A DNA stretch of 64,000 nucleotides from Myxococcota bacterium. Its GTDB lineage: Bacteria; Myxococcota_A; UBA796; GCA-2862545. The stretch spans positions 14,707 to 78,706 of the forward strand of contig JBIKWC010000004.1 of NCBI GenBank assembly GCA_044356535.1. Direction: 5' to 3'. Each line of letters starts with the position of its first letter. The stretch's first letter is position 1. The notes below the pieces were generated by a model. The model searched no databases. It had not been told where the DNA came from and was given only the letters and a program-made list of their open reading frames with translations. Below, piece after piece: positions 4,144 to 22,044 of this stretch. The translations under genes were made by a program, and so were the position numbers.

Positions 4144-6009
4144 ATGAACCGACGGCAGCTGTTGGCGTTGGGCGCCGTCGCGGGTGGCGCGGTCCTGGGC
4201 GGGGGCCTGTGGGGCATCCAGCCTCGCGGCACCACCTGGCCCGCCGTCGGAACCGGTCGGCGCGCGCGCCCCGAAGGTGAGCGACGGGTCGTGATCGTGG
4301 GGGGCGGCCTCGCGGGGATGTCGGCCGCTGCGGTGCTCGCGGCCCGGGGGTACCGGGTCACGTTGTGCGAGGCCGGCGACGCGCTCGGGGGCAAGCTCGC
4401 GGGCTGGCCCATCACCGTCGAGGGCGTCGAGGTGCCGATGGAGCACGGGTTCCACGGCTTCTTCCGGCAGTACTACAACCTGCGGTCCCTCCTCGCCGAG
4501 GCCGGCGCCGACCGCGACCTCGTGCCCCAGTCGGCGTACGAGATCCTGTTCCGCGACCGCCCGTCCGAGGGGTTCCGCGCCGGGTGGACGCCGTTCCCCT
4601 TCAGCCTGCTCGAGGTCCTCGCCCGGTCCCCCACGCTCTCGCTCGGCGACGTGGCCGGCGACCGGCCCGGCATGAACGCGCTCCTCGCGTACGACCCGGT
4701 CGCGACCTTCGCGAAGTGGGACCACCTCGACGCAGCGGCGTTCGTGCGCGAGGGCCAGCTGGGCGGGCCGTTCGACGACCTCGTGTTGCGCCCGTTCGGG
4801 CAGGCGTCCATGAACGCCCTCGACCGGTTCTCCGCCGCCGAGCTCGTGCGGTTCTTCCACTTCTACATGCTCGGCAACCCCGAAGGCCTCGGGTTCGACG
4901 CGCTCGGGCGCGGGGTCCACCTCTCGGTGCTGGCCCCGTTGCGGGCGCACCTCGAGCGGCTCGGAGTGGAGATTCGGACGGGCGCGCGCGTGCGCCGGGT
5001 GGTGGTGCGCGGGGGTCGCGCGGTGGGCGTGGTCCTCGACGCGCCGGGGGCGGGACCGACTGCAGCGGCACCGGTGGCGGACATCCCGCCGGCTGGGTGG
5101 GTCGCCATGGCCGACGGCGCGGTCTTCGTGCGCAGGGCCGGCGCCGGGTTCGAGGCCCGCGACGCGCGCTGCACCCACCTCGGCTGCCGCGTGGCGCTGG
5201 AGGGCGCAGGGTTCCGTTGTCCCTGCCACGCCGGCCGCTACGACGCCGACGCGCGGCCGGTCTCCGGGCCTCCGAAGGCGCCGCTGGTGGCGCTGCCGGC
5301 GACGGTGGTGGGCGACACGGTCTCCATCGGCAGTGGGCCGGCGGACGAGCTCCTGGCGGCCGACGCGGTCGTGCTCGCGACGGAGGTGCGCGGGTTCCGG
5401 GCGCTGGTGGCGCAGAGCGAGCTGGACGACGTGGACCCGGCGCTGGTGGCGTCTGCCCGCCACGCCGGGGAGGCCGACCCGTACGCGGTCGTCCGGTTCT
5501 GGTTCGATCGACCCACGCTCCCGTCCCGGGCCCCGTTCTACACCGTGGCAGGGTACGAATGGACGGACTCCCTCGCCATCTATTCGGCGTTTCAGGAGCC
5601 CTTCCGGTCCGACCCGGGCCGCGCGGTGGTGGAGACGCACGCGTACGGCATCCCGCCGGCGCTCCAGGGGCCGCCGTCCACCTACCGCGACGCGCTCCTG
5701 CGCGAGCTCCGCGAGGCGTTCCCCGAGCTGGCGGACGCGAAGATCCGCCACGAGGAGGTGATGGCGCAGTCGAACTTCACGCGGTTCGGGCCCGGGGACT
5801 TCGCCCGCCGACCCACCGTCGCCACCGCGGTGCCGAACCTGTTCGTCGCCGGCGACCACGTGCAGCTGCCGTTCCCGGCGTTCCTGATGGAGGCCGCGGT
5901 GGCGTCCGGACGGCTCGCCGCCAACCACGTGTGTGCAGCGGACGGCGTCACCGAGGAGCACATCCCGACGGTGGCGCTGCGCGGGCCGCTGGCCGACGTG
6001 CTGGGGTAG
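4144..6009 (+). CDS. FAD-dependent oxidoreductase (amine oxidase / phytoene-desaturase superfamily) with embedded Rieske [2Fe-2S] motif and Tat signal
   Basis: Twin-arginine signal MNRRQLLALGAVAGGAVLG. Dinucleotide-binding VVIVGGGLAGMSAAAVLAARG. Rieske-type CTHLGC-(16)-CPCH in the middle of the fold. Confidence 0.8.
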   Translation: MNRRQLLALGAVAGGAVLGGGLWGIQPRGTTWPAVGTGRRARPEGERRVVIVGGGLAGMSAAAVLAARGYRVTLCEAGDALGGKLAGWPITVEGVEVPMEHGFHGFFRQYYNLRSLLAEAGADRDLVPQSAYEILFRDRPSEGFRAGWTPFPFSLLEVLARSPTLSLGDVAGDRPGMNALLAYDPVATFAKWDHLDAAAFVREGQLGGPFDDLVLRPFGQASMNALDRFSAAELVRFFHFYMLGNPEGLGFDALGRGVHLSVLAPLRAHLERLGVEIRTGARVRRVVVRGGRAVGVVLDAPGAGPTAAAPVADIPPAGWVAMADGAVFVRRAGAGFEARDARCTHLGCRVALEGAGFRCPCHAGRYDADARPVSGPPKAPLVALPATVVGDTVSIGSGPADELLAADAVVLATEVRGFRALVAQSELDDVDPALVASARHAGEADPYAVVRFWFDRPTLPSRAPFYTVAGYEWTDSLAIYSAFQEPFRSDPGRAVVETHAYGIPPALQGPPSTYRDALLRELREAFPELADAKIRHEEVMAQSNFTRFGPGDFARRPTVATAVPNLFVAGDHVQLPFPAFLMEAAVASGRLAANHVCAADGVTEEHIPTVALRGPLADVLG

Positions 6010-16833: not shown

Positions 16834-17694
16834 TCAGGCCGTCGGCGTGGGCGCGATCGCCGGGGGCGCGCCCCAGATGCGGGCCGGGCCGATCGGGGCG
16901 TCCGTGCTGCGCAGGCGGTACACGAGGGCGCCGATGCACACCAGCGTGAGCACGGTCGACCAGTACTGGCCCGGCGTGAAGCCCAGATACCGCACGTCCG
17001 TGACCACCGGGCGCAGGTAGTCCATGCCGAAGCGCAGCGGGCCGTACAACACGCCGAGGGTCAACACCAGGGTGCCGGGCTTGAGCGCGCGCGCGTCCAG
17101 CAGGTTGAACAGGCCGAACATGCCGAGCGACCACAACGCCTCGTACAGGCCCATGTCGTGGCACGCGATGTTCTTGGCACCCGACGGCTGGCAGATGCCG
17201 TACACGCCGAGCCAGAAGTTCGTCTCCGTGCCCGGGTGGTCGTGGGCCACGAAGCAGCCCATCCGGCCGAAGAACCACCCGAGCGACATCCCGAGCGCGA
17301 GGCAGTCGAGGAACGGCCAGAGCGGCACCTTCTCCTTGCGGAAGAACCAGATCGAGATCGGGACGCACACCAGGAAGCCGCCGAACGACGACAGGCCCTG
17401 CCACATGTACAGGAACTGGATCGGGTCCGCGAGGTACTCGCGCGGCTTGTACATCAGGCCGTAGCCCACGTGCCCGCCCACGAACGTCCCGAACACGAGC
17501 CAGCCGATCAGCCGGTTGATCACCTCGGGATCTAGGCCGAGGCGCCGGGCGCGTGCCATCGCCGCCCGCCCGCCGAACACGAACCCCAACGCCACGAGGA
17601 ATCCGAAGCCGTGGAGCGGGAAGTTCACGATGGGGACGTTGAAGATCGGTTCCTCGAACCCTCGGATCAACGGGTGCACCAGCGCCTCCAGCAC
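16834..17694 (-). CDS. lgt: prolipoprotein diacylglyceryl transferase
   Basis: Polytopic; Lgt signature region GRMGCFVAHDHPG and conserved H/Y/R residues; 286 aa. Confidence 0.85.
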   Translation of the reverse strand: MLEALVHPLIRGFEEPIFNVPIVNFPLHGFGFLVALGFVFGGRAAMARARRLGLDPEVINRLIGWLVFGTFVGGHVGYGLMYKPREYLADPIQFLYMWQGLSSFGGFLVCVPISIWFFRKEKVPLWPFLDCLALGMSLGWFFGRMGCFVAHDHPGTETNFWLGVYGICQPSGAKNIACHDMGLYEALWSLGMFGLFNLLDARALKPGTLVLTLGVLYGPLRFGMDYLRPVVTDVRYLGFTPGQYWSTVLTLVCIGALVYRLRSTDAPIGPARIWGAPPAIAPTPTA

Positions 17695-17768: not shown

Positions 17769-18932
17769 ATGGCCACCCTCAACTTCGCCACCCGCGAGCT
17801 GACCGCGAAGATCGTCTTCTTCGGGGCACAGGGCGCGGGCTGCAACACGAACGTGGCGCGCCTGTTCCACCTCGTGGGCGGCACGCGGCGCAGCGCGCTG
17901 CTCAAGCTGTCGAGCGAAGGCGAGACCGAGCACTCCTGGTGCTTCGAGTTCTCGGACGAGGAGCCCGCCCCGGTCACCGGCTTCACGATGGTGTTCCGCG
18001 TGTACTCGCTGCCGGGCGCGATCGGGCTCGGTGCCCACCGGGAGGAGGTCGTCGAGGGGCTCGACGGCGTGGTGTTCGTCGCCGACGCGCGCCCCGACCG
18101 CAACCAACGCAACGTGGAGGCCCTCCTCGAGCTCGAGGGTCGGCTCGGCCGGGCCGGGCACGAGCTCGCGCACACCCTCGTCACGCTGCAGGTCAACCAC
18201 ACCGACGCCGACGGCGCGCGTCCGGTGAGCGACGTCACGTTCGACCTCAACCCCTACGGCTTCCCGGTGTTCGAGGCCGCCGCCCACGAGGGCCGCGGCG
18301 TGCTCGAGACCCACCTCTCCGTCGCCCACCGCATCCGTGAGGCCGTGTCGGCGGCGCTGACGGGAGCGCCGTCTCCGCTGCTCCTCACTGCCACCCACGA
18401 CTCCGAGCGCTCGACCGACGTCGACCTCGTACGCGCCCACGTGGCCGCGATTCACACGCAGATGCGGACGCCGCCGCTGCAGGAGGAGCGAGCGCCCGAG
18501 GAGGAGCTGCCGCCCGTCGAGCTGCAGGAGGGCCCGACGGTGGAGGTGCCGTTCCAGCCGCGCGAGCTCGCCGGGTTCCACCCCGTCCGGGTCCTCGGCA
18601 CCATGGTCGACGGCGACCGCGTGTGGGTCGAGCTCGCCATGGAGCGCATGGGCGGCGGCGAGGTCCGGCGGGTGGCGCTGGTGCTGCAGAACCGCCCACC
18701 CGACACGGCCCCGGTGGCGCTGCCGCAGGCCTCGCCGGTGCAGCAGGCTCCGGTGTTGTCCGAGGGCTCCGGGGCGCGCTCGGTGTTCGACTTCCTCCCG
18801 GAGTCCGTGGTGTACCCGGAGGCCCCGACGGGCCCGCGGACCGACCTCCCCGGCGTCTGGTACGGCCTCCTCGGGGTTGGGGGCGGCATCCTCATCGGGC
18901 TCCTGTCGGCCTATGTCCTCGGCGCCGTCTGA
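17769..18932 (+). CDS. MglA-like small Ras-family (pseudo)GTPase with C-terminal extension and tail TM anchor
   Basis: N-terminus aligns to MglA (NFATRELTAKIVFFGAQGAGCNTNVARLF vs [29 protein letters not shown]). P-loop Lys replaced (GAGCNT); NKxD degenerated to NHTD. ~200-aa extension ends in VWYGLLGVGGGILIGLLSAYVLGAV. Confidence 0.7.
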   Translation: MATLNFATRELTAKIVFFGAQGAGCNTNVARLFHLVGGTRRSALLKLSSEGETEHSWCFEFSDEEPAPVTGFTMVFRVYSLPGAIGLGAHREEVVEGLDGVVFVADARPDRNQRNVEALLELEGRLGRAGHELAHTLVTLQVNHTDADGARPVSDVTFDLNPYGFPVFEAAAHEGRGVLETHLSVAHRIREAVSAALTGAPSPLLLTATHDSERSTDVDLVRAHVAAIHTQMRTPPLQEERAPEEELPPVELQEGPTVEVPFQPRELAGFHPVRVLGTMVDGDRVWVELAMERMGGGEVRRVALVLQNRPPDTAPVALPQASPVQQAPVLSEGSGARSVFDFLPESVVYPEAPTGPRTDLPGVWYGLLGVGGGILIGLLSAYVLGAV

Positions 18933-19040
18933 ACCCACCCACGCTGGAACGTGAGGGGAGCCTCCGGGGTTGGTGAGAACGAGCTGTGAGGCCTCCCCAC
19001 CGGGAGCGCGCTCCGTTATTTCTCGCCAGTGGAGGATCAC

Positions 19041-19598
19041 ATGCGCTGGTTGCCCAACGTGTCTGTCGCCTTGTTGTTCGCCGCCATGGCCTTCGCGCCC
19101 GCGGGCGCATCCGCGGGCACCACCATCGAGGGCAAACCGAAGCTGACCTTCTACGCCACCGGGTCTCCGGGATTCATGAGCATCGAAGGTGTGACCAGCA
19201 CGGTGAAGCTCACCGACGACGGCACGAAGCTCGCATTCACCGTCCCCATGGCCACCGTCGACTCGGGCATCACGCTCCGCGACGAACACATGAACAAGAA
19301 CTACGTGCAGATCGACCAGTTCCCGGACGTGGTCCTCGAGTTCGCGAAGGCCGACGTCAAGTGGCCCACCGAGGGTTCGACGGAGGCGACGGTGCAGGGG
19401 ACCTTCACGCTGCACGGCGTCACGCAGCCCACCACGGTCGGCTACACGATCAGCAAGACCAAGACCGGCTGGCGCGTGAAGGCCCGGTTCGACTACGACA
19501 CCAGCAAACACGGCATCACGATCGAGCCCTACATGGGCATCTCGTTCGACTCCAAGATGTACGCCACCGCCGTCGTGGACCTCGTCGATGCGCCCTGA
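19041..19598 (+). CDS. YceI-like periplasmic polyisoprenoid-binding family protein
   Basis: Signal peptide MRWLPNVSVALLFAAMAFAPAGASA. YceI-like beta-barrel motifs (TFTLHGVTQP, KARFDYDTS). Confidence 0.8.
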   Translation: MRWLPNVSVALLFAAMAFAPAGASAGTTIEGKPKLTFYATGSPGFMSIEGVTSTVKLTDDGTKLAFTVPMATVDSGITLRDEHMNKNYVQIDQFPDVVLEFAKADVKWPTEGSTEATVQGTFTLHGVTQPTTVGYTISKTKTGWRVKARFDYDTSKHGITIEPYMGISFDSKMYATAVVDLVDAP

Positions 19599-20766
19599 GC
19601 TCCGCGGCGCGGTCGCAGCGCTGGCGGCAGTGTCGGCAGTGACCCTGGCGCTCCGCGAGGAGCCGGCGCGCGCGTACCCCTGGATGATCCACCACGGGTA
19701 CACGGGCTGCGCCCAGTGCCACGTCGACCCGTCCGGCGCGGGCGTCCTCACGGACTACGGTCGGGCGCAGGGTGAGATCCTCCTCCGCACGCACTACTCG
19801 GGCGAGGTCGCCGAGAACCCGGGCAAGATCAAGGACTTCCTGTTCGGCGCCGTGCCGCTGCCCGAGGTCCTGCACCTCCAGGCCGACGTCCGCGGCCTGC
19901 TGATCCCCGACCCCGCCAACCTGCAGGCGATCCTGATGCAGTCGGACCTGCGCGGAGCCGTGCAAACGAAGCGCTTCTCGGCCTCGGCGAGCGTGGGGAC
20001 GGTGTCGCGCGGCGCCGAGGAGGCCTGGGTCTCGTCGGGTGACGGCTGGAACCTCGTGTCCCGCGAGTACTGGGCCGGCGTGTCCCCGAGCAAGGCCGTC
20101 ACCGTGCGGGCCGGGCGCATGAACCTGCCGTTCGGGCTGCGCACCGAGGACCACATCCTCGACGTCCGCGGCGCCACCCGCACGACGCTCAACGACGAAC
20201 AGCAGACCGGCGTGTCGGTCTTCTGGAACAACAAGAAGTTCCGTGGCGAGCTCATGGGCATCGCCGGCAACTTCCAGGTTCGCCCGGACTCGTTCCGCGA
20301 CCGCGGATACAGCCTGTACCTGGCGTGGGCCCCCGAGACCACCCTCGAGCTCGGCGTGTCGAGCCTGTTCACCACGGCTGCGACCGACCTCGTGACGCTC
20401 GGCCCCCGCACCCGTCTCGCCGAGGGCGTGTTCGGGCGCTGGGCCCCGGTCGACGAGCTGGCGTTCCTCGCCGAGGCCGATGTGTTGCTCGACAACCAGG
20501 ACGGCGCGGCCGCAACCGGGCTCGTGACCACGGCGATCGTCGACTACGAGCCGGTCCAGGGGCTGCACCTGCAGGCCATCGGCGAGACCTGCGACGACGC
20601 GTTCGGCGACGACGCGGGCGCCTCGGTGACCGGGACGGGCGCAGCGCAGTGGTTCTTCTTGCCGCACGCTGATCTCCGGCTCGATGGCGGCTACGGCTCC
20701 GTGTTCTGCACCCCCGGGGTGCCTGGCTCTCCGTTCGGTCTGTTGCAGGCGCACTTCTTCCTGTAG
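19588..20766 (+). CDS. Cyc2-like fused monoheme cytochrome c-porin (outer-membrane beta-barrel with N-terminal CxxCH)
   Basis: Signal peptide. Single CAQCH immediately after the predicted cleavage site. Then ~340 aa of alternating amphipathic beta-strand-like segments ending in aromatic ...LQAHFFL. Overlaps the YceI gene end by 11 bp. Confidence 0.65.
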   Translation: MRPELRGAVAALAAVSAVTLALREEPARAYPWMIHHGYTGCAQCHVDPSGAGVLTDYGRAQGEILLRTHYSGEVAENPGKIKDFLFGAVPLPEVLHLQADVRGLLIPDPANLQAILMQSDLRGAVQTKRFSASASVGTVSRGAEEAWVSSGDGWNLVSREYWAGVSPSKAVTVRAGRMNLPFGLRTEDHILDVRGATRTTLNDEQQTGVSVFWNNKKFRGELMGIAGNFQVRPDSFRDRGYSLYLAWAPETTLELGVSSLFTTAATDLVTLGPRTRLAEGVFGRWAPVDELAFLAEADVLLDNQDGAAATGLVTTAIVDYEPVQGLHLQAIGETCDDAFGDDAGASVTGTGAAQWFFLPHADLRLDGGYGSVFCTPGVPGSPFGLLQAHFFL

Positions 20767-20774
20767 GAGCGTCG

Positions 20775-21263
20775 ATGTCCACGCTGTTCGCCGCCATCGC
20801 GTTGTTCGCGCCCGGCGCCCTGGCCTCCCCGGGGTACCCCGCCGACCTCGAGAGCGAGCTCGGGATGCCGTGTGCGCCGCCGTGCACCGTGTGCCACGAC
20901 TCCAACGTGGGCGGCGCCGGCACCGTCACCGCGGCGTTCGGCGTCGCGATGGAGGGCGCGGGCCTGGCCGGGGGCTCGCAGACCGACCTGCTGGTGACGG
21001 CGCTCGGGCAGCTCGACGCCGACAGCGACGGAGACGGCACTCTGGACGTCGACGAGCTCGCCGCCGGGGACGACCCCAACGGCGGGCCCTCCCTCTGCGA
21101 TGCCGTCGCGCCCGAATACGGTTGCTTCAACCAGGGCCAGGGCCCCGCCGGCCTCGTCGCGGTAGCCCTCGCCGCCCTGGCCGTCAGGCGCGCCCGGGCG
21201 CCGGGTAGGTCCCCGCGAGGAACCGGTCCCACATCCGGTCGGACATCCAGCCCCGCAGCGTGA
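20775..21263 (+). CDS. small secreted monoheme CxxCH protein with MYXO-CTERM-like C-terminal sorting tail
   Basis: Signal peptide MSTLFAAIALFAPGALA. CTVCH. Acidic DxDGDG segment. C-terminal ...YGCFNQGQGPAGLVAVALAALAVRRAR (Cys, Gly-rich, hydrophobic helix, Arg cluster). Confidence 0.6.
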   Translation: MSTLFAAIALFAPGALASPGYPADLESELGMPCAPPCTVCHDSNVGGAGTVTAAFGVAMEGAGLAGGSQTDLLVTALGQLDADSDGDGTLDVDELAAGDDPNGGPSLCDAVAPEYGCFNQGQGPAGLVAVALAALAVRRARAPGRSPRGTGPTSGRTSSPAA

Positions 21264-22044
21264 CCATCACGTGAGCTGACGGCGTGACGAGGTACCGCGT
21301 GCGCGGGCGGTCCGCGTCCAGCGCCGTCTCCACCACGCGCGCCACGTCGTCCGGGTCTCCACCGGCGTACCGCCCGAGCGGCCCCTTCTCGTAGGCTTCC
21401 AGGGTGACCTTCTCGACGGTGCCGTTGAACGCATCGTACGGGCCGGGGGTGGCCGAAGGGGGCGCCATCTGCTGCGAAACCGCCTCGGCGAACCCCGTCC
21501 GGATGATGCCCGGCTGGATCAGGACCACGTCCACGCCGAAGCCCGCGAGCTCGAACCGAAGCGCGTCGGTGAGGGACTCCACCGCCCACTTCGTCGCGTG
21601 GTACGCGCCGCCACCCGGGAGCGTGAACCTGCCGCCCATCGAGCCGATGTTCACGATCCGCCCGTAGCCCTGGGCGCGCATGCCGGGAGCGCAGAGCTGC
21701 ACCATGCGCACGAGCCCGAACACGTTGGTCTCGAACTGGCGGCGCAGCTTGTCCATCGGCAGCGACTCGACCGCCCCGGACTGGCTGTACCCGGCGTTGT
21801 TCACGAGCGCGCCCACGACGCCGTGTTCGCGCTCGATCTGCGCGACTGCGGCGGTCATCGACGCCTCGTCGTTGACGTCGAGCGACACGACGGCGCACCC
21901 GGCGGCGACGCAGTCCTGCAGCGCCTCCACCTTGCGCGCCGTCGCCACCACCTTCTTGTCCGCCTTCGCCAGGCGGATGGCCGTGGCCTTCCCGATCCCG
22001 GACGAGCACCCTGTCACCAACACCACCTTCGACACCTGGCTCAC
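21184..22044 (-). CDS. short-chain dehydrogenase/reductase (SDR)
   Basis: TGCSSGIGKA Rossmann motif, NNAG, catalytic Y-x-x-x-K (YHATKWAV). GTG start overlaps the tetR stop (GTGA). Confidence 0.85.
   Translation of the reverse strand: MSQVSKVVLVTGCSSGIGKATAIRLAKADKKVVATARKVEALQDCVAAGCAVVSLDVNDEASMTAAVAQIEREHGVVGALVNNAGYSQSGAVESLPMDKLRRQFETNVFGLVRMVQLCAPGMRAQGYGRIVNIGSMGGRFTLPGGGAYHATKWAVESLTDALRFELAGFGVDVVLIQPGIIRTGFAEAVSQQMAPPSATPGPYDAFNGTVEKVTLEAYEKGPLGRYAGGDPDDVARVVETALDADRPRTRYLVTPSAHVMVTLRGWMSDRMWDRFLAGTYPAPGRA

Follow-up and report, generated by a model that had tools for sequence, protein, structure and literature searches.

Within a 64,000-nucleotide stretch of the genome of a Myxococcota bacterium (contig JBIKWC010000004.1, positions 14,707 to 78,706; hereafter, the window; G+C content ~72%), three adjacent genes encode a YceI-family lipocalin (gene 1), a beta-barrel protein with a single N-terminal CxxCH motif (gene 2) and a small secreted CxxCH protein with a tail that resembles a surface-sorting signal (gene 3). 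We consider it about an even chance (probability close to 0.5) that this module is a trans-outer-membrane electron conduit, built around an outer-membrane porin to which one c-type haem would be bound covalently. This proposal follows from the invariance of the CxxCH motif in the barrel protein, which is accompanied by two nearly invariant candidate haem ligands, from the combination of an invariant CxxCH with a Gly-Cys/helix/Arg tail matching the tripartite MYXO-CTERM definition in the gene 3 protein, and from the retention of the module in genomes in which the flanking genes change. The direction of electron flow through such a conduit and its substrate are not readable from the sequence.

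The gene 2 product starts with a cleavable signal peptide (MRPELRGAVAALAAVSAVTLALREEPARA, followed after the cleavage site by YPWMIHHGYTGCAQCH). Both alanines of the A-x-A cleavage site (A27 and A29) are invariant in an alignment of 35 sequences of this family, and residues 3-21 are helical in the AlphaFold2 (AF2) model. CxxCH is the motif for covalent attachment of haem c, and its only copy in this protein, C41-A-Q-C44-H45, lies 12 residues into the mature chain. The motif is conserved in all 35 aligned sequences (35/35), and each of the homologues from 80 species genomes contains exactly one (80/80). The other invariant positions of the alignment include P31, D47, P48 and G50, close to the motif, and H189, H327, C335, C374, H389 and the terminal L392, farther downstream; M33 and H36 are nearly invariant and are candidate distal ligands. 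Across the 80 genome loci, the signature of the family can be written as A-YPWMI[R/H]H-Y--CxxCH-DPSG-G-LT-YGR.

The rest of the protein is predicted to form a barrel. The AF2 model (predicted local distance difference test score, pLDDT, 81.9) contains ~16 strands within residues ~95-390, with a fold similar to that of phosphate and general porins (OprO/OprP-like). Thus, the alignment and the model both bear out an earlier note on this DNA, made from the sequence alone, which described a signal peptide, an N-terminal CxxCH and a porin-like build for this protein, and the motif is conserved in the orthologs. Two details of that description have to be amended: the barrel spans ~300 rather than ~340 residues, and the C-terminus (HFFL) is aromatic-rich but does not end in an aromatic residue, the terminal Leu being invariant. 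The family is covered by no Pfam or NCBIfam model, the sole match being a sub-threshold one to Porin_O_P (E=0.099), and a search of the PDB sequences with the family profile yielded no matches.

The architecture of the gene 2 protein is that of Cyc2, which is defined by a signal peptide, one CXXCH with the motif AXPXFAR[Q/K][T/Y] upstream and PXL downstream, and a 16-strand OprO/OprP-like porin, at a length of at least 365 aa, the upstream motif being used as a membership screen (Keffer et al., PMC8406198). For comparison, metagenome contigs were scanned with a DNA pattern encoding FAR[QK][TY]...CxxCH, and 66 full-length Cyc2-type proteins of 395-581 aa were recovered, most of them with aromatic C-termini; being pre-selected by the published motif, this set passes the motif screen by construction and is not a set of curated Cyc2 proteins. 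Their consensus is A-[IV]-P-[AS]-FAR[QK][TY]-xxx-CxxCH-xxx-P-x-L-[NT]-x-[FY]-G. The gene 2 protein has in common with Cyc2 the signal peptide, the single CxxCH ~12 residues into the mature chain, the 16-strand OprO/OprP-like barrel and a similar length (392 aa, above the 365 aa minimum). Furthermore, the spacing from A-x-P to the first Cys is identical to that in the 66 canonical Cyc2 proteins, and the downstream L-[TN]-x-[FY]-G-[RQ] is shared as well (L-T-x-Y-G-R in the gene 2 family). However, the gene 2 family has MI[R/H]HGY in place of FAR[Q/K][T/Y] (A-Y-P-W-M-I-[R/H]-H-G-Y-T-x-C); the Arg of the FAR position is found in most members, but not in the window copy. Instead of P-x-L, there is a longer DPSG-x-G-x-L loop with five residues between P and L (H-V-D-P-S-G-A-G-V-L-T-D-Y-G-R), and the C-terminus is Q-x-H-x-x-L, in contrast to the aromatic one of Cyc2. 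With both FAR[Q/K][T/Y] and PxL replaced, the gene 2 family would fail the published Cyc2 screen.

Comparison of the two families by hidden Markov models (HMMs) gave a split result. The HMM-to-sequence cross-scores are insignificant in both directions (≤13 bits one way and ≤22 bits the other), whereas profile-to-profile alignment with hhalign gave a probability of 94.6% for the whole proteins. With the signal peptides removed, the haem module alone aligned with that of Cyc2 at 95.6% (score 34.9 over 30 columns), whereas the two barrels gave 4.5% and no alignment. Unrelated class I cytochromes used as a control (cytochrome c of horse, c551 of Pseudomonas and c2 of Rhodobacter; three sequences that provide a rough baseline only) scored 16-23 over 10-16 columns, with probabilities of 15-66%, and the haem module of gene 3 scored 27.5 against the gene 2 family and 24.4 against Cyc2, with probabilities of 86-91%. 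The haem modules of gene 2 and Cyc2 are thus probably remotely related. Judging from these comparisons, the gene 2 family is separate from Cyc2 and not a canonical member of it, so that the membership in Cyc2 suggested by the earlier note is not established; the protein is nevertheless built like Cyc2, and its general mode of action is most likely the same. Cytochrome-porin fusions already include very divergent families, given that Cyc572 of Leptospirillum, which consists of an N-terminal CxxCH fused to a porin, is only ~11% identical to Cyc2 (PMC10654088). Compared by description alone, Cyc572 and the gene 2 protein are both cytochrome-porin fusions divergent from Cyc2, but they come from different phyla and have different operon partners.

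The second putative haem protein of the module, the gene 3 product, has an N-terminal signal peptide and one CxxCH as well. Among the genome loci, 65 of the 66 copies located downstream of the barrel gene on the same strand contain CxxCH, and the remaining one contains CxxxCH. An extra Cys (CxPxCxxCH) is conserved in the close clade, i.e., the loci whose barrel protein is at least 50% identical to that of the window; the distant clade lacks this Cys but retains CxxCH. Conservation of two fixed-position CxxCH sites, one in each protein, over hundreds of genomes is far beyond chance. The other invariant features of the gene 3 protein include the signal-peptide cleavage region, Y-P, G46, G47 and T50. 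There is also a conserved loop, DSDGDG-x-x-D-x-x-E-L, that resembles calcium-binding loops and is supported by weak EF-hand matches and, in one homologue, by a match to TSP3_bac (PF18884). The AF2 model (pLDDT 79.9) consists of a small helical domain and a C-terminal helix (residues 123-140), for which no neighbour was found among the solved structures; the class I (mitochondrial-type) cytochrome c fold was not matched. Word-indexed search detected only 24 relatives of this protein; in translated searches, its gene adjoins that of the barrel protein at most of the genome loci. The haem modules of gene 3 (20883-20960) and gene 2 (19708-19767) are themselves alike, sharing the pattern CH-x-[DS]-[PN]-x-G-G-x-G-..-T-x-x-[FY]-G (hhalign 91%), which hints that they might be paralogous.

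The tail of the gene 3 protein (YGC-F..-LVAVALAALAV-RRAR, with R138, R139 and R141) starts from a [YF]GC that is present in most of the genome loci. MYXO-CTERM signals are defined by three parts, an invariant Cys, a membrane helix and an Arg cluster, and the proteins that carry them are sorted by the myxosortase MrtX (PMC11980579). The gene 3 protein has in common with these proteins the signal peptide, the Cys/helix/Arg tail and the Myxococcota hosts, but it differs in having a Y-G-C-F signature instead of the generic GCGC, in scoring below the model cut-offs and in the 21 residues that trail the Arg cluster. Most of the homologues end 0-5 residues past this cluster, and the nearest relative has an 11-residue extension. 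The homologue tails score 8.6-14.6 with TIGR03901, and one passes PEP-CTERM (17.9, cut-off 16). Given that the tripartite definition fits but the curated models are missed, "MYXO-CTERM-like" is the defensible wording: the three-part build of the tail noted earlier stands, the assignment to MYXO-CTERM proper does not, both TIGR03901 and TIGR03382 remaining below their cut-offs.

Gene 1 matches the Pfam YceI family (PF04264) with 56.6 bits (cut-off 23.7; E=5e-15) over profile positions 27-134 of 150, in agreement with its earlier identification as YceI-like. With a cleavable signal peptide that ends in ASA and no lipobox, its product is predicted to be a soluble periplasmic or secreted lipocalin. 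YceI-family lipocalins bind the isoprenoid quinone ubiquinone-8 and are genetically paired with a haem protein that has been proposed to re-reduce them (PMC9113575). By analogy, a quinone-loaded YceI lipocalin is a plausible periplasmic carrier for the module described here.

The relationships among the three genes were surveyed in the 80 species genomes, split by identity to the barrel protein of the window into the close clade (≥50%) and the distant clade (<50%, mostly Polyangiaceae). In the close clade, YceI is encoded directly upstream of the barrel gene in 36 of 37 loci, and the small haem protein directly downstream in 35 of 35. The corresponding counts in the distant clade are 12 of 43 and 31 of 41; in 3 further loci of this clade, YceI has moved downstream and still adjoins the module, and at least 4 of the small genes that seem to be missing could be traced as open reading frames (ORFs) of higher divergence, with one CxxCH and a hydrophobic and Arg tail. 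All 4 distant loci for which gene calls are available (4/4) have the order YceI, barrel, small protein, with unrelated flanks. Because YceI is absent upstream from most distant-clade loci while the other two genes persist, the core of the module is therefore the barrel and the small haem protein, YceI being a frequent, clade-specific third member. In one Polyangiaceae metagenome-assembled genome (MAG), a 280-aa c-type cytochrome is encoded at the position of YceI, directly upstream of the barrel gene (locus L068, 3116-3958); it matches Cytochrome_CBB3 and other haem domains, and we count it as supporting context for a redox module. Two unrelated loci (L004, 11572-13182, and L007, 9515-11092) contain, a few kb from the module, a radical SAM/SPASM gene beside a gene for a Cu-binding MopE-like protein, a proximity that may be a coincidence.

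Taken together, these features suggest the following scheme for the conduit, in which the topology and the contacts between the partners are predicted. All three proteins would be exported via their Sec signal peptides, and the cytochrome c maturation system would attach haem in the periplasm at the CxxCH of the mature barrel protein. The haem peptide of ~30 residues, too short to fold alone, would be lodged in the 16-strand barrel, within or at its periplasmic mouth, a placement that is modelled on the proposal for Cyc2. The gene 3 protein would carry one haem, and its tail would be processed like a MYXO-CTERM signal, i.e., lipidated and cleaved, so that the protein becomes lipid-anchored at the cell surface, beside the barrel, with the YceI lipocalin acting as the carrier on the periplasmic side. 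Electrons would then be exchanged between the periplasm and a donor or acceptor outside the cell, for example, iron, organic matter (humic or dissolved) or oxygen radicals. The logic would be like that of the MtrCAB, PioAB and MtoAB systems, namely, an outer-membrane barrel combined with a surface lipid-anchored cytochrome and a periplasmic carrier. A more specific version of the scheme, in which YceI, carrying an isoprenoid quinol, would collect electrons from the quinone pool of the inner membrane and deliver them to the one-haem porin, which would pass them on to the lipid-anchored one-haem surface protein, appears unlikely.

Several observations weigh against the conduit. The presence of haem on either CxxCH is deduced from the motif, and the N-terminal region of the barrel protein is modelled by AF2 with low confidence (pLDDT 46-63), so that the model does not place the haem. 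Part of the score against Cyc2 comes from the CxxCH profile alone, as indicated by the controls (16-27 versus 34.9). The full-length gene 3 protein matches neither TIGR03382 nor TIGR03901, and after trimming of the extension, the tail reaches 15.7 with the former (cut-off 15.85) and 13.7 with the latter (cut-off 20); in the window copy, moreover, the tail is followed by the additional 21 residues. Most of the distant clade does without YceI, and the module has no linked gene for a periplasmic cytochrome or an oxidase. Finally, the habitats of the carriers (lakes, soils, peat, glacier streams) are not specifically iron-rich.

Among the alternatives, the one that survives best, although we consider it rather improbable, is an envelope antioxidant system. 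YceI would then carry quinol or capture oxidised lipids, the haem-porin and the small haem protein would replace cytochrome b561, and the role of the module at the outer membrane would be to scavenge lipid peroxyl radicals or reactive oxygen, rather than to function in respiration or lithotrophy. There is a described precedent in the BcnA-LcoA pair, in which a secreted YceI-family lipocalin with a proposed quinone-carrier role is genetically coupled to a haem protein and a peroxidation phenotype is known (PMC9113575); the partner in that case, however, is the inner-membrane cytochrome b561, as opposed to the outer-membrane c-type haem porin here. The tight linkage of YceI in the close clade speaks for this possibility, and the hosts, widespread and probably aerobic Myxococcota of oxic waters and soils, would fit housekeeping protection. 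Nevertheless, most of the distant-clade loci lack YceI while the barrel and the small haem protein persist, suggesting that YceI is accessory, and neither a cytochrome b561 gene nor an aldehyde reductase gene is linked to the module in the five annotated loci. In addition, the Cyc2-type architecture has so far been tied to metal oxidation (PMC8406198).

In a further rival reading, the module is a canonical Cyc2-type Fe(II) oxidase, which would oxidise dissolved Fe(II) at the cell surface and pass electrons inward to the gene 3 protein and then to a terminal oxidase; the gene 3 product would in this case be a periplasmic cytochrome held at the inner membrane by its C-terminal helix. The architecture and the OprP-like fold in common with Cyc2 and the remote similarity of the haem modules are compatible with such a function, and the sub-threshold scores of the sorting models would allow for a plain C-terminal membrane anchor that follows the positive-inside rule. 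We nonetheless find this reading still harder to accept than the antioxidant one: the diagnostic Cyc2 motif is absent, the HMM cross-scores do not exceed 22 bits, and the barrels have no sequence similarity. Moreover, none of the 120 canonical Cyc2 loci (773 kb) has a YceI-like or gene-3-like neighbour, the invariant Gly-Cys ahead of the helix speaks for processing and not for a simple anchor, and the hosts are not known as iron oxidisers.

The least likely of the rival readings, with very little probability left to it, is an ordinary solute porin that takes up a metal or a hydrophobic compound to be passed to YceI, with CxxCH in a metal-binding or structural, non-haem role: the phosphate/general-porin fold with its weak Porin_O_P match, the lack of a cytochrome c fold in the gene 3 protein and the additional conserved Cys in the close clade might point in this direction, but CxxCH, an established haem c attachment motif, is the only feature of the two proteins that is strictly invariant across hundreds of genomes, is kept where the distant clade drops the extra Cys, and has flanks whose resemblance to the Cyc2 haem module exceeds what CxxCH alone accounts for (34.9 versus the controls).

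The gene 2 family is large. Word-indexed search retrieved at least 935 relatives, all named "hypothetical", and an exhaustive profile search of 50%-identity clusters yielded 1,777 at E≤1e-3, 1,075 at 1e-10 and 273 at 1e-30. A scan of one genome per species detected the family in 316 species genomes, which are labelled Myxococcota, Polyangiaceae or "Deltaproteobacteria", along with some obviously mislabelled MAGs, and come from lakes, soils, peat, groundwater and glacier streams. Several high-G+C contigs with the module (L011, L022, L023, L031, L033, L044 and L060) are titled Klebsiella pneumoniae, Enterobacteriaceae or Actinomycetota, which are probably wrong taxonomic labels on MAGs. Six long relatives of the gene 2 protein (P0203, P0214, P0220, P0224, P0234 and P0240; 507-584 aa) have the same N-terminal haem module followed by an acidic or Lys-rich low-complexity linker of 100-200 residues, with recurring DSFDSFD, before the barrel. 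Because these variants keep the haem peptide 100-200 residues from the barrel, the haem module is a separable unit. A 475-aa sequence (P0083) that could be taken for a natural YceI-barrel fusion was rejected, as the Arg-rich stretch at its C-terminus is out of frame, which most likely reflects a frameshift or an assembly artefact.

In the window, the layout of the three genes (Table 1) is as the earlier note had it: they are co-directional, the start of gene 2 overlaps the YceI stop by 11 bp, and genes 2 and 3 are separated by an 8-bp gap. This arrangement is seen both in the ORF listing and in independent gene calls on identical public contigs, which contain the same three genes (185, 392 and 162 aa); the region is identical to metagenome contigs assigned to Myxococcota. 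The ORF of gene 1 is listed with alternative starts (19029/19041-19598), of which the ATG at 19041 was used. An AGGAG that overlaps the stop codon of gene 2 precedes the ATG of gene 3 at 20775, as read from the sequence. The overlapping and 8-bp junctions, together with the ribosome-binding sites, suggest that the three genes form a single, operon-like transcription and translation unit, and the coupling proposed earlier is further supported by the conservation of the module across loci in related genomes. Scans for consensus sigma-70 promoters and intrinsic terminators in 18700-21500 gave no matches, which is uninformative at 72% G+C.

Table 1. Position of the module genes and of their sequence features in the window.
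Feature	Position	Strand	Remarks
Shine-Dalgarno GGAGG, YceI gene	19031-19035	+	6 nt 5' of ATG 19041; read from sequence
Gene 1, YceI-family	19041-19598	+	185 aa; predicted secreted lipocalin; ORF listing
Gene 2, putative fused monohaem cytochrome c and porin	19588-20766	+	392 aa; ORF listing
Gene 2, signal peptide	19588-19674	+	Residues 1-29, MRPELRG-AVAALAAVSAVTLAL-REEPARA; A-x-A site, cleavage between ARA and Y
Gene 2, predicted haem module	19675-19767	+	Residues 30-60, YPWMIHHGYTGCAQCHVDPSGAGVLTDYGRA; CxxCH (residues 41-45) at 19708-19722
Gene 2, predicted 16-strand OprP-like beta-barrel	19834-20766	+	Residues ~83-392; C-terminal Q-x-H-x-x-L
Gene 3, small secreted CxxCH protein with MYXO-CTERM-like tail	20775-21263	+	162 aa; ORF listing
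Gene 3, CTVCH, predicted haem-attachment motif	20883-20897	+	Residues 37-41; C37, C40 and H41 invariant in 24 homologues
Gene 3, calcium-loop-like motif (thrombospondin-type-3 or EF-hand-like)	21021-21059	+	DSDGDGTLDVDEL; D83, D87, G88, D91 and L95 invariant
Gene 3, sorting-signal-like tail	21120-21197	+	Gly116-Cys117, hydrophobic helix, RRAR; G116, C117, R138 and R139 invariant
Gene 3, 21-residue extension beyond the Arg cluster	21198-21263	+	Overlaps the convergent SDR gene

Downstream of the module, a convergent short-chain dehydrogenase (SDR) gene (21184-22044, minus strand) overlaps with its 3' end the last 80 bp of gene 3 (21184-21263). Directly upstream, there is a 387-aa ORF (17769-18932, plus strand) for which no Pfam or NCBIfam match was found; its N-terminus resembles a degenerate P-loop, and it has a hydrophobic helix at the C-terminus. 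Farther upstream lies lgt (16834-17694, minus strand), with a Peptidase_A8 (LspA) gene ~2 kb beyond it (4683-5201 in the identical contig L001). Lipidation of MYXO-CTERM proteins has been proposed to be carried out by an Lgt-like acyltransferase (PMC11980579), but the linkage of lgt and lspA to the module is not conserved in other genomes. The 387-aa ORF, lgt and the SDR gene were all rejected as members of the module given that they adjoin it in no other locus.

No simpler device than a fused cytochrome-porin is known for the transfer of electrons across the bacterial outer membrane, and Cyc2 is the main genetic marker for inferring iron oxidation from metagenomes. Because the gene 2 family does not pass the Cyc2 motif screen and is covered by neither Pfam nor NCBIfam, it is probably missed by current surveys. 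The earlier note overstated the case in saying that extracellular electron transfer is not an established myxobacterial trait, since it is documented for Anaeromyxobacter. Cyc2-type matches have been reported in lake Myxococcota MAGs as well (bioRxiv 10.1101/2022.03.26.485925), so that the general idea is not unprecedented. In the literature searched, we found no account that links Cyc2-type proteins with YceI or that describes such a cytochrome-porin in Myxococcota. What is described here is a large, unannotated cytochrome-porin family, so classified from its sequence features, with its own signature and its own set of partners. These fixed partners, a one-haem protein of the surface-sorted type and a lipocalin of the quinone-binding type, suggest a complete, very small conduit, which would lie in a phylum whose members are known chiefly as predators and for their social behaviour. 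If electrons indeed took the route from the quinone pool via YceI, aerobic, predatory Myxococcota would possess a minimal, two-haem form of extracellular electron transfer without multihaem cytochromes. The presence of the gene 2 family in a cultured organism, Minicystis rosea DSM 24000, makes the module directly testable.

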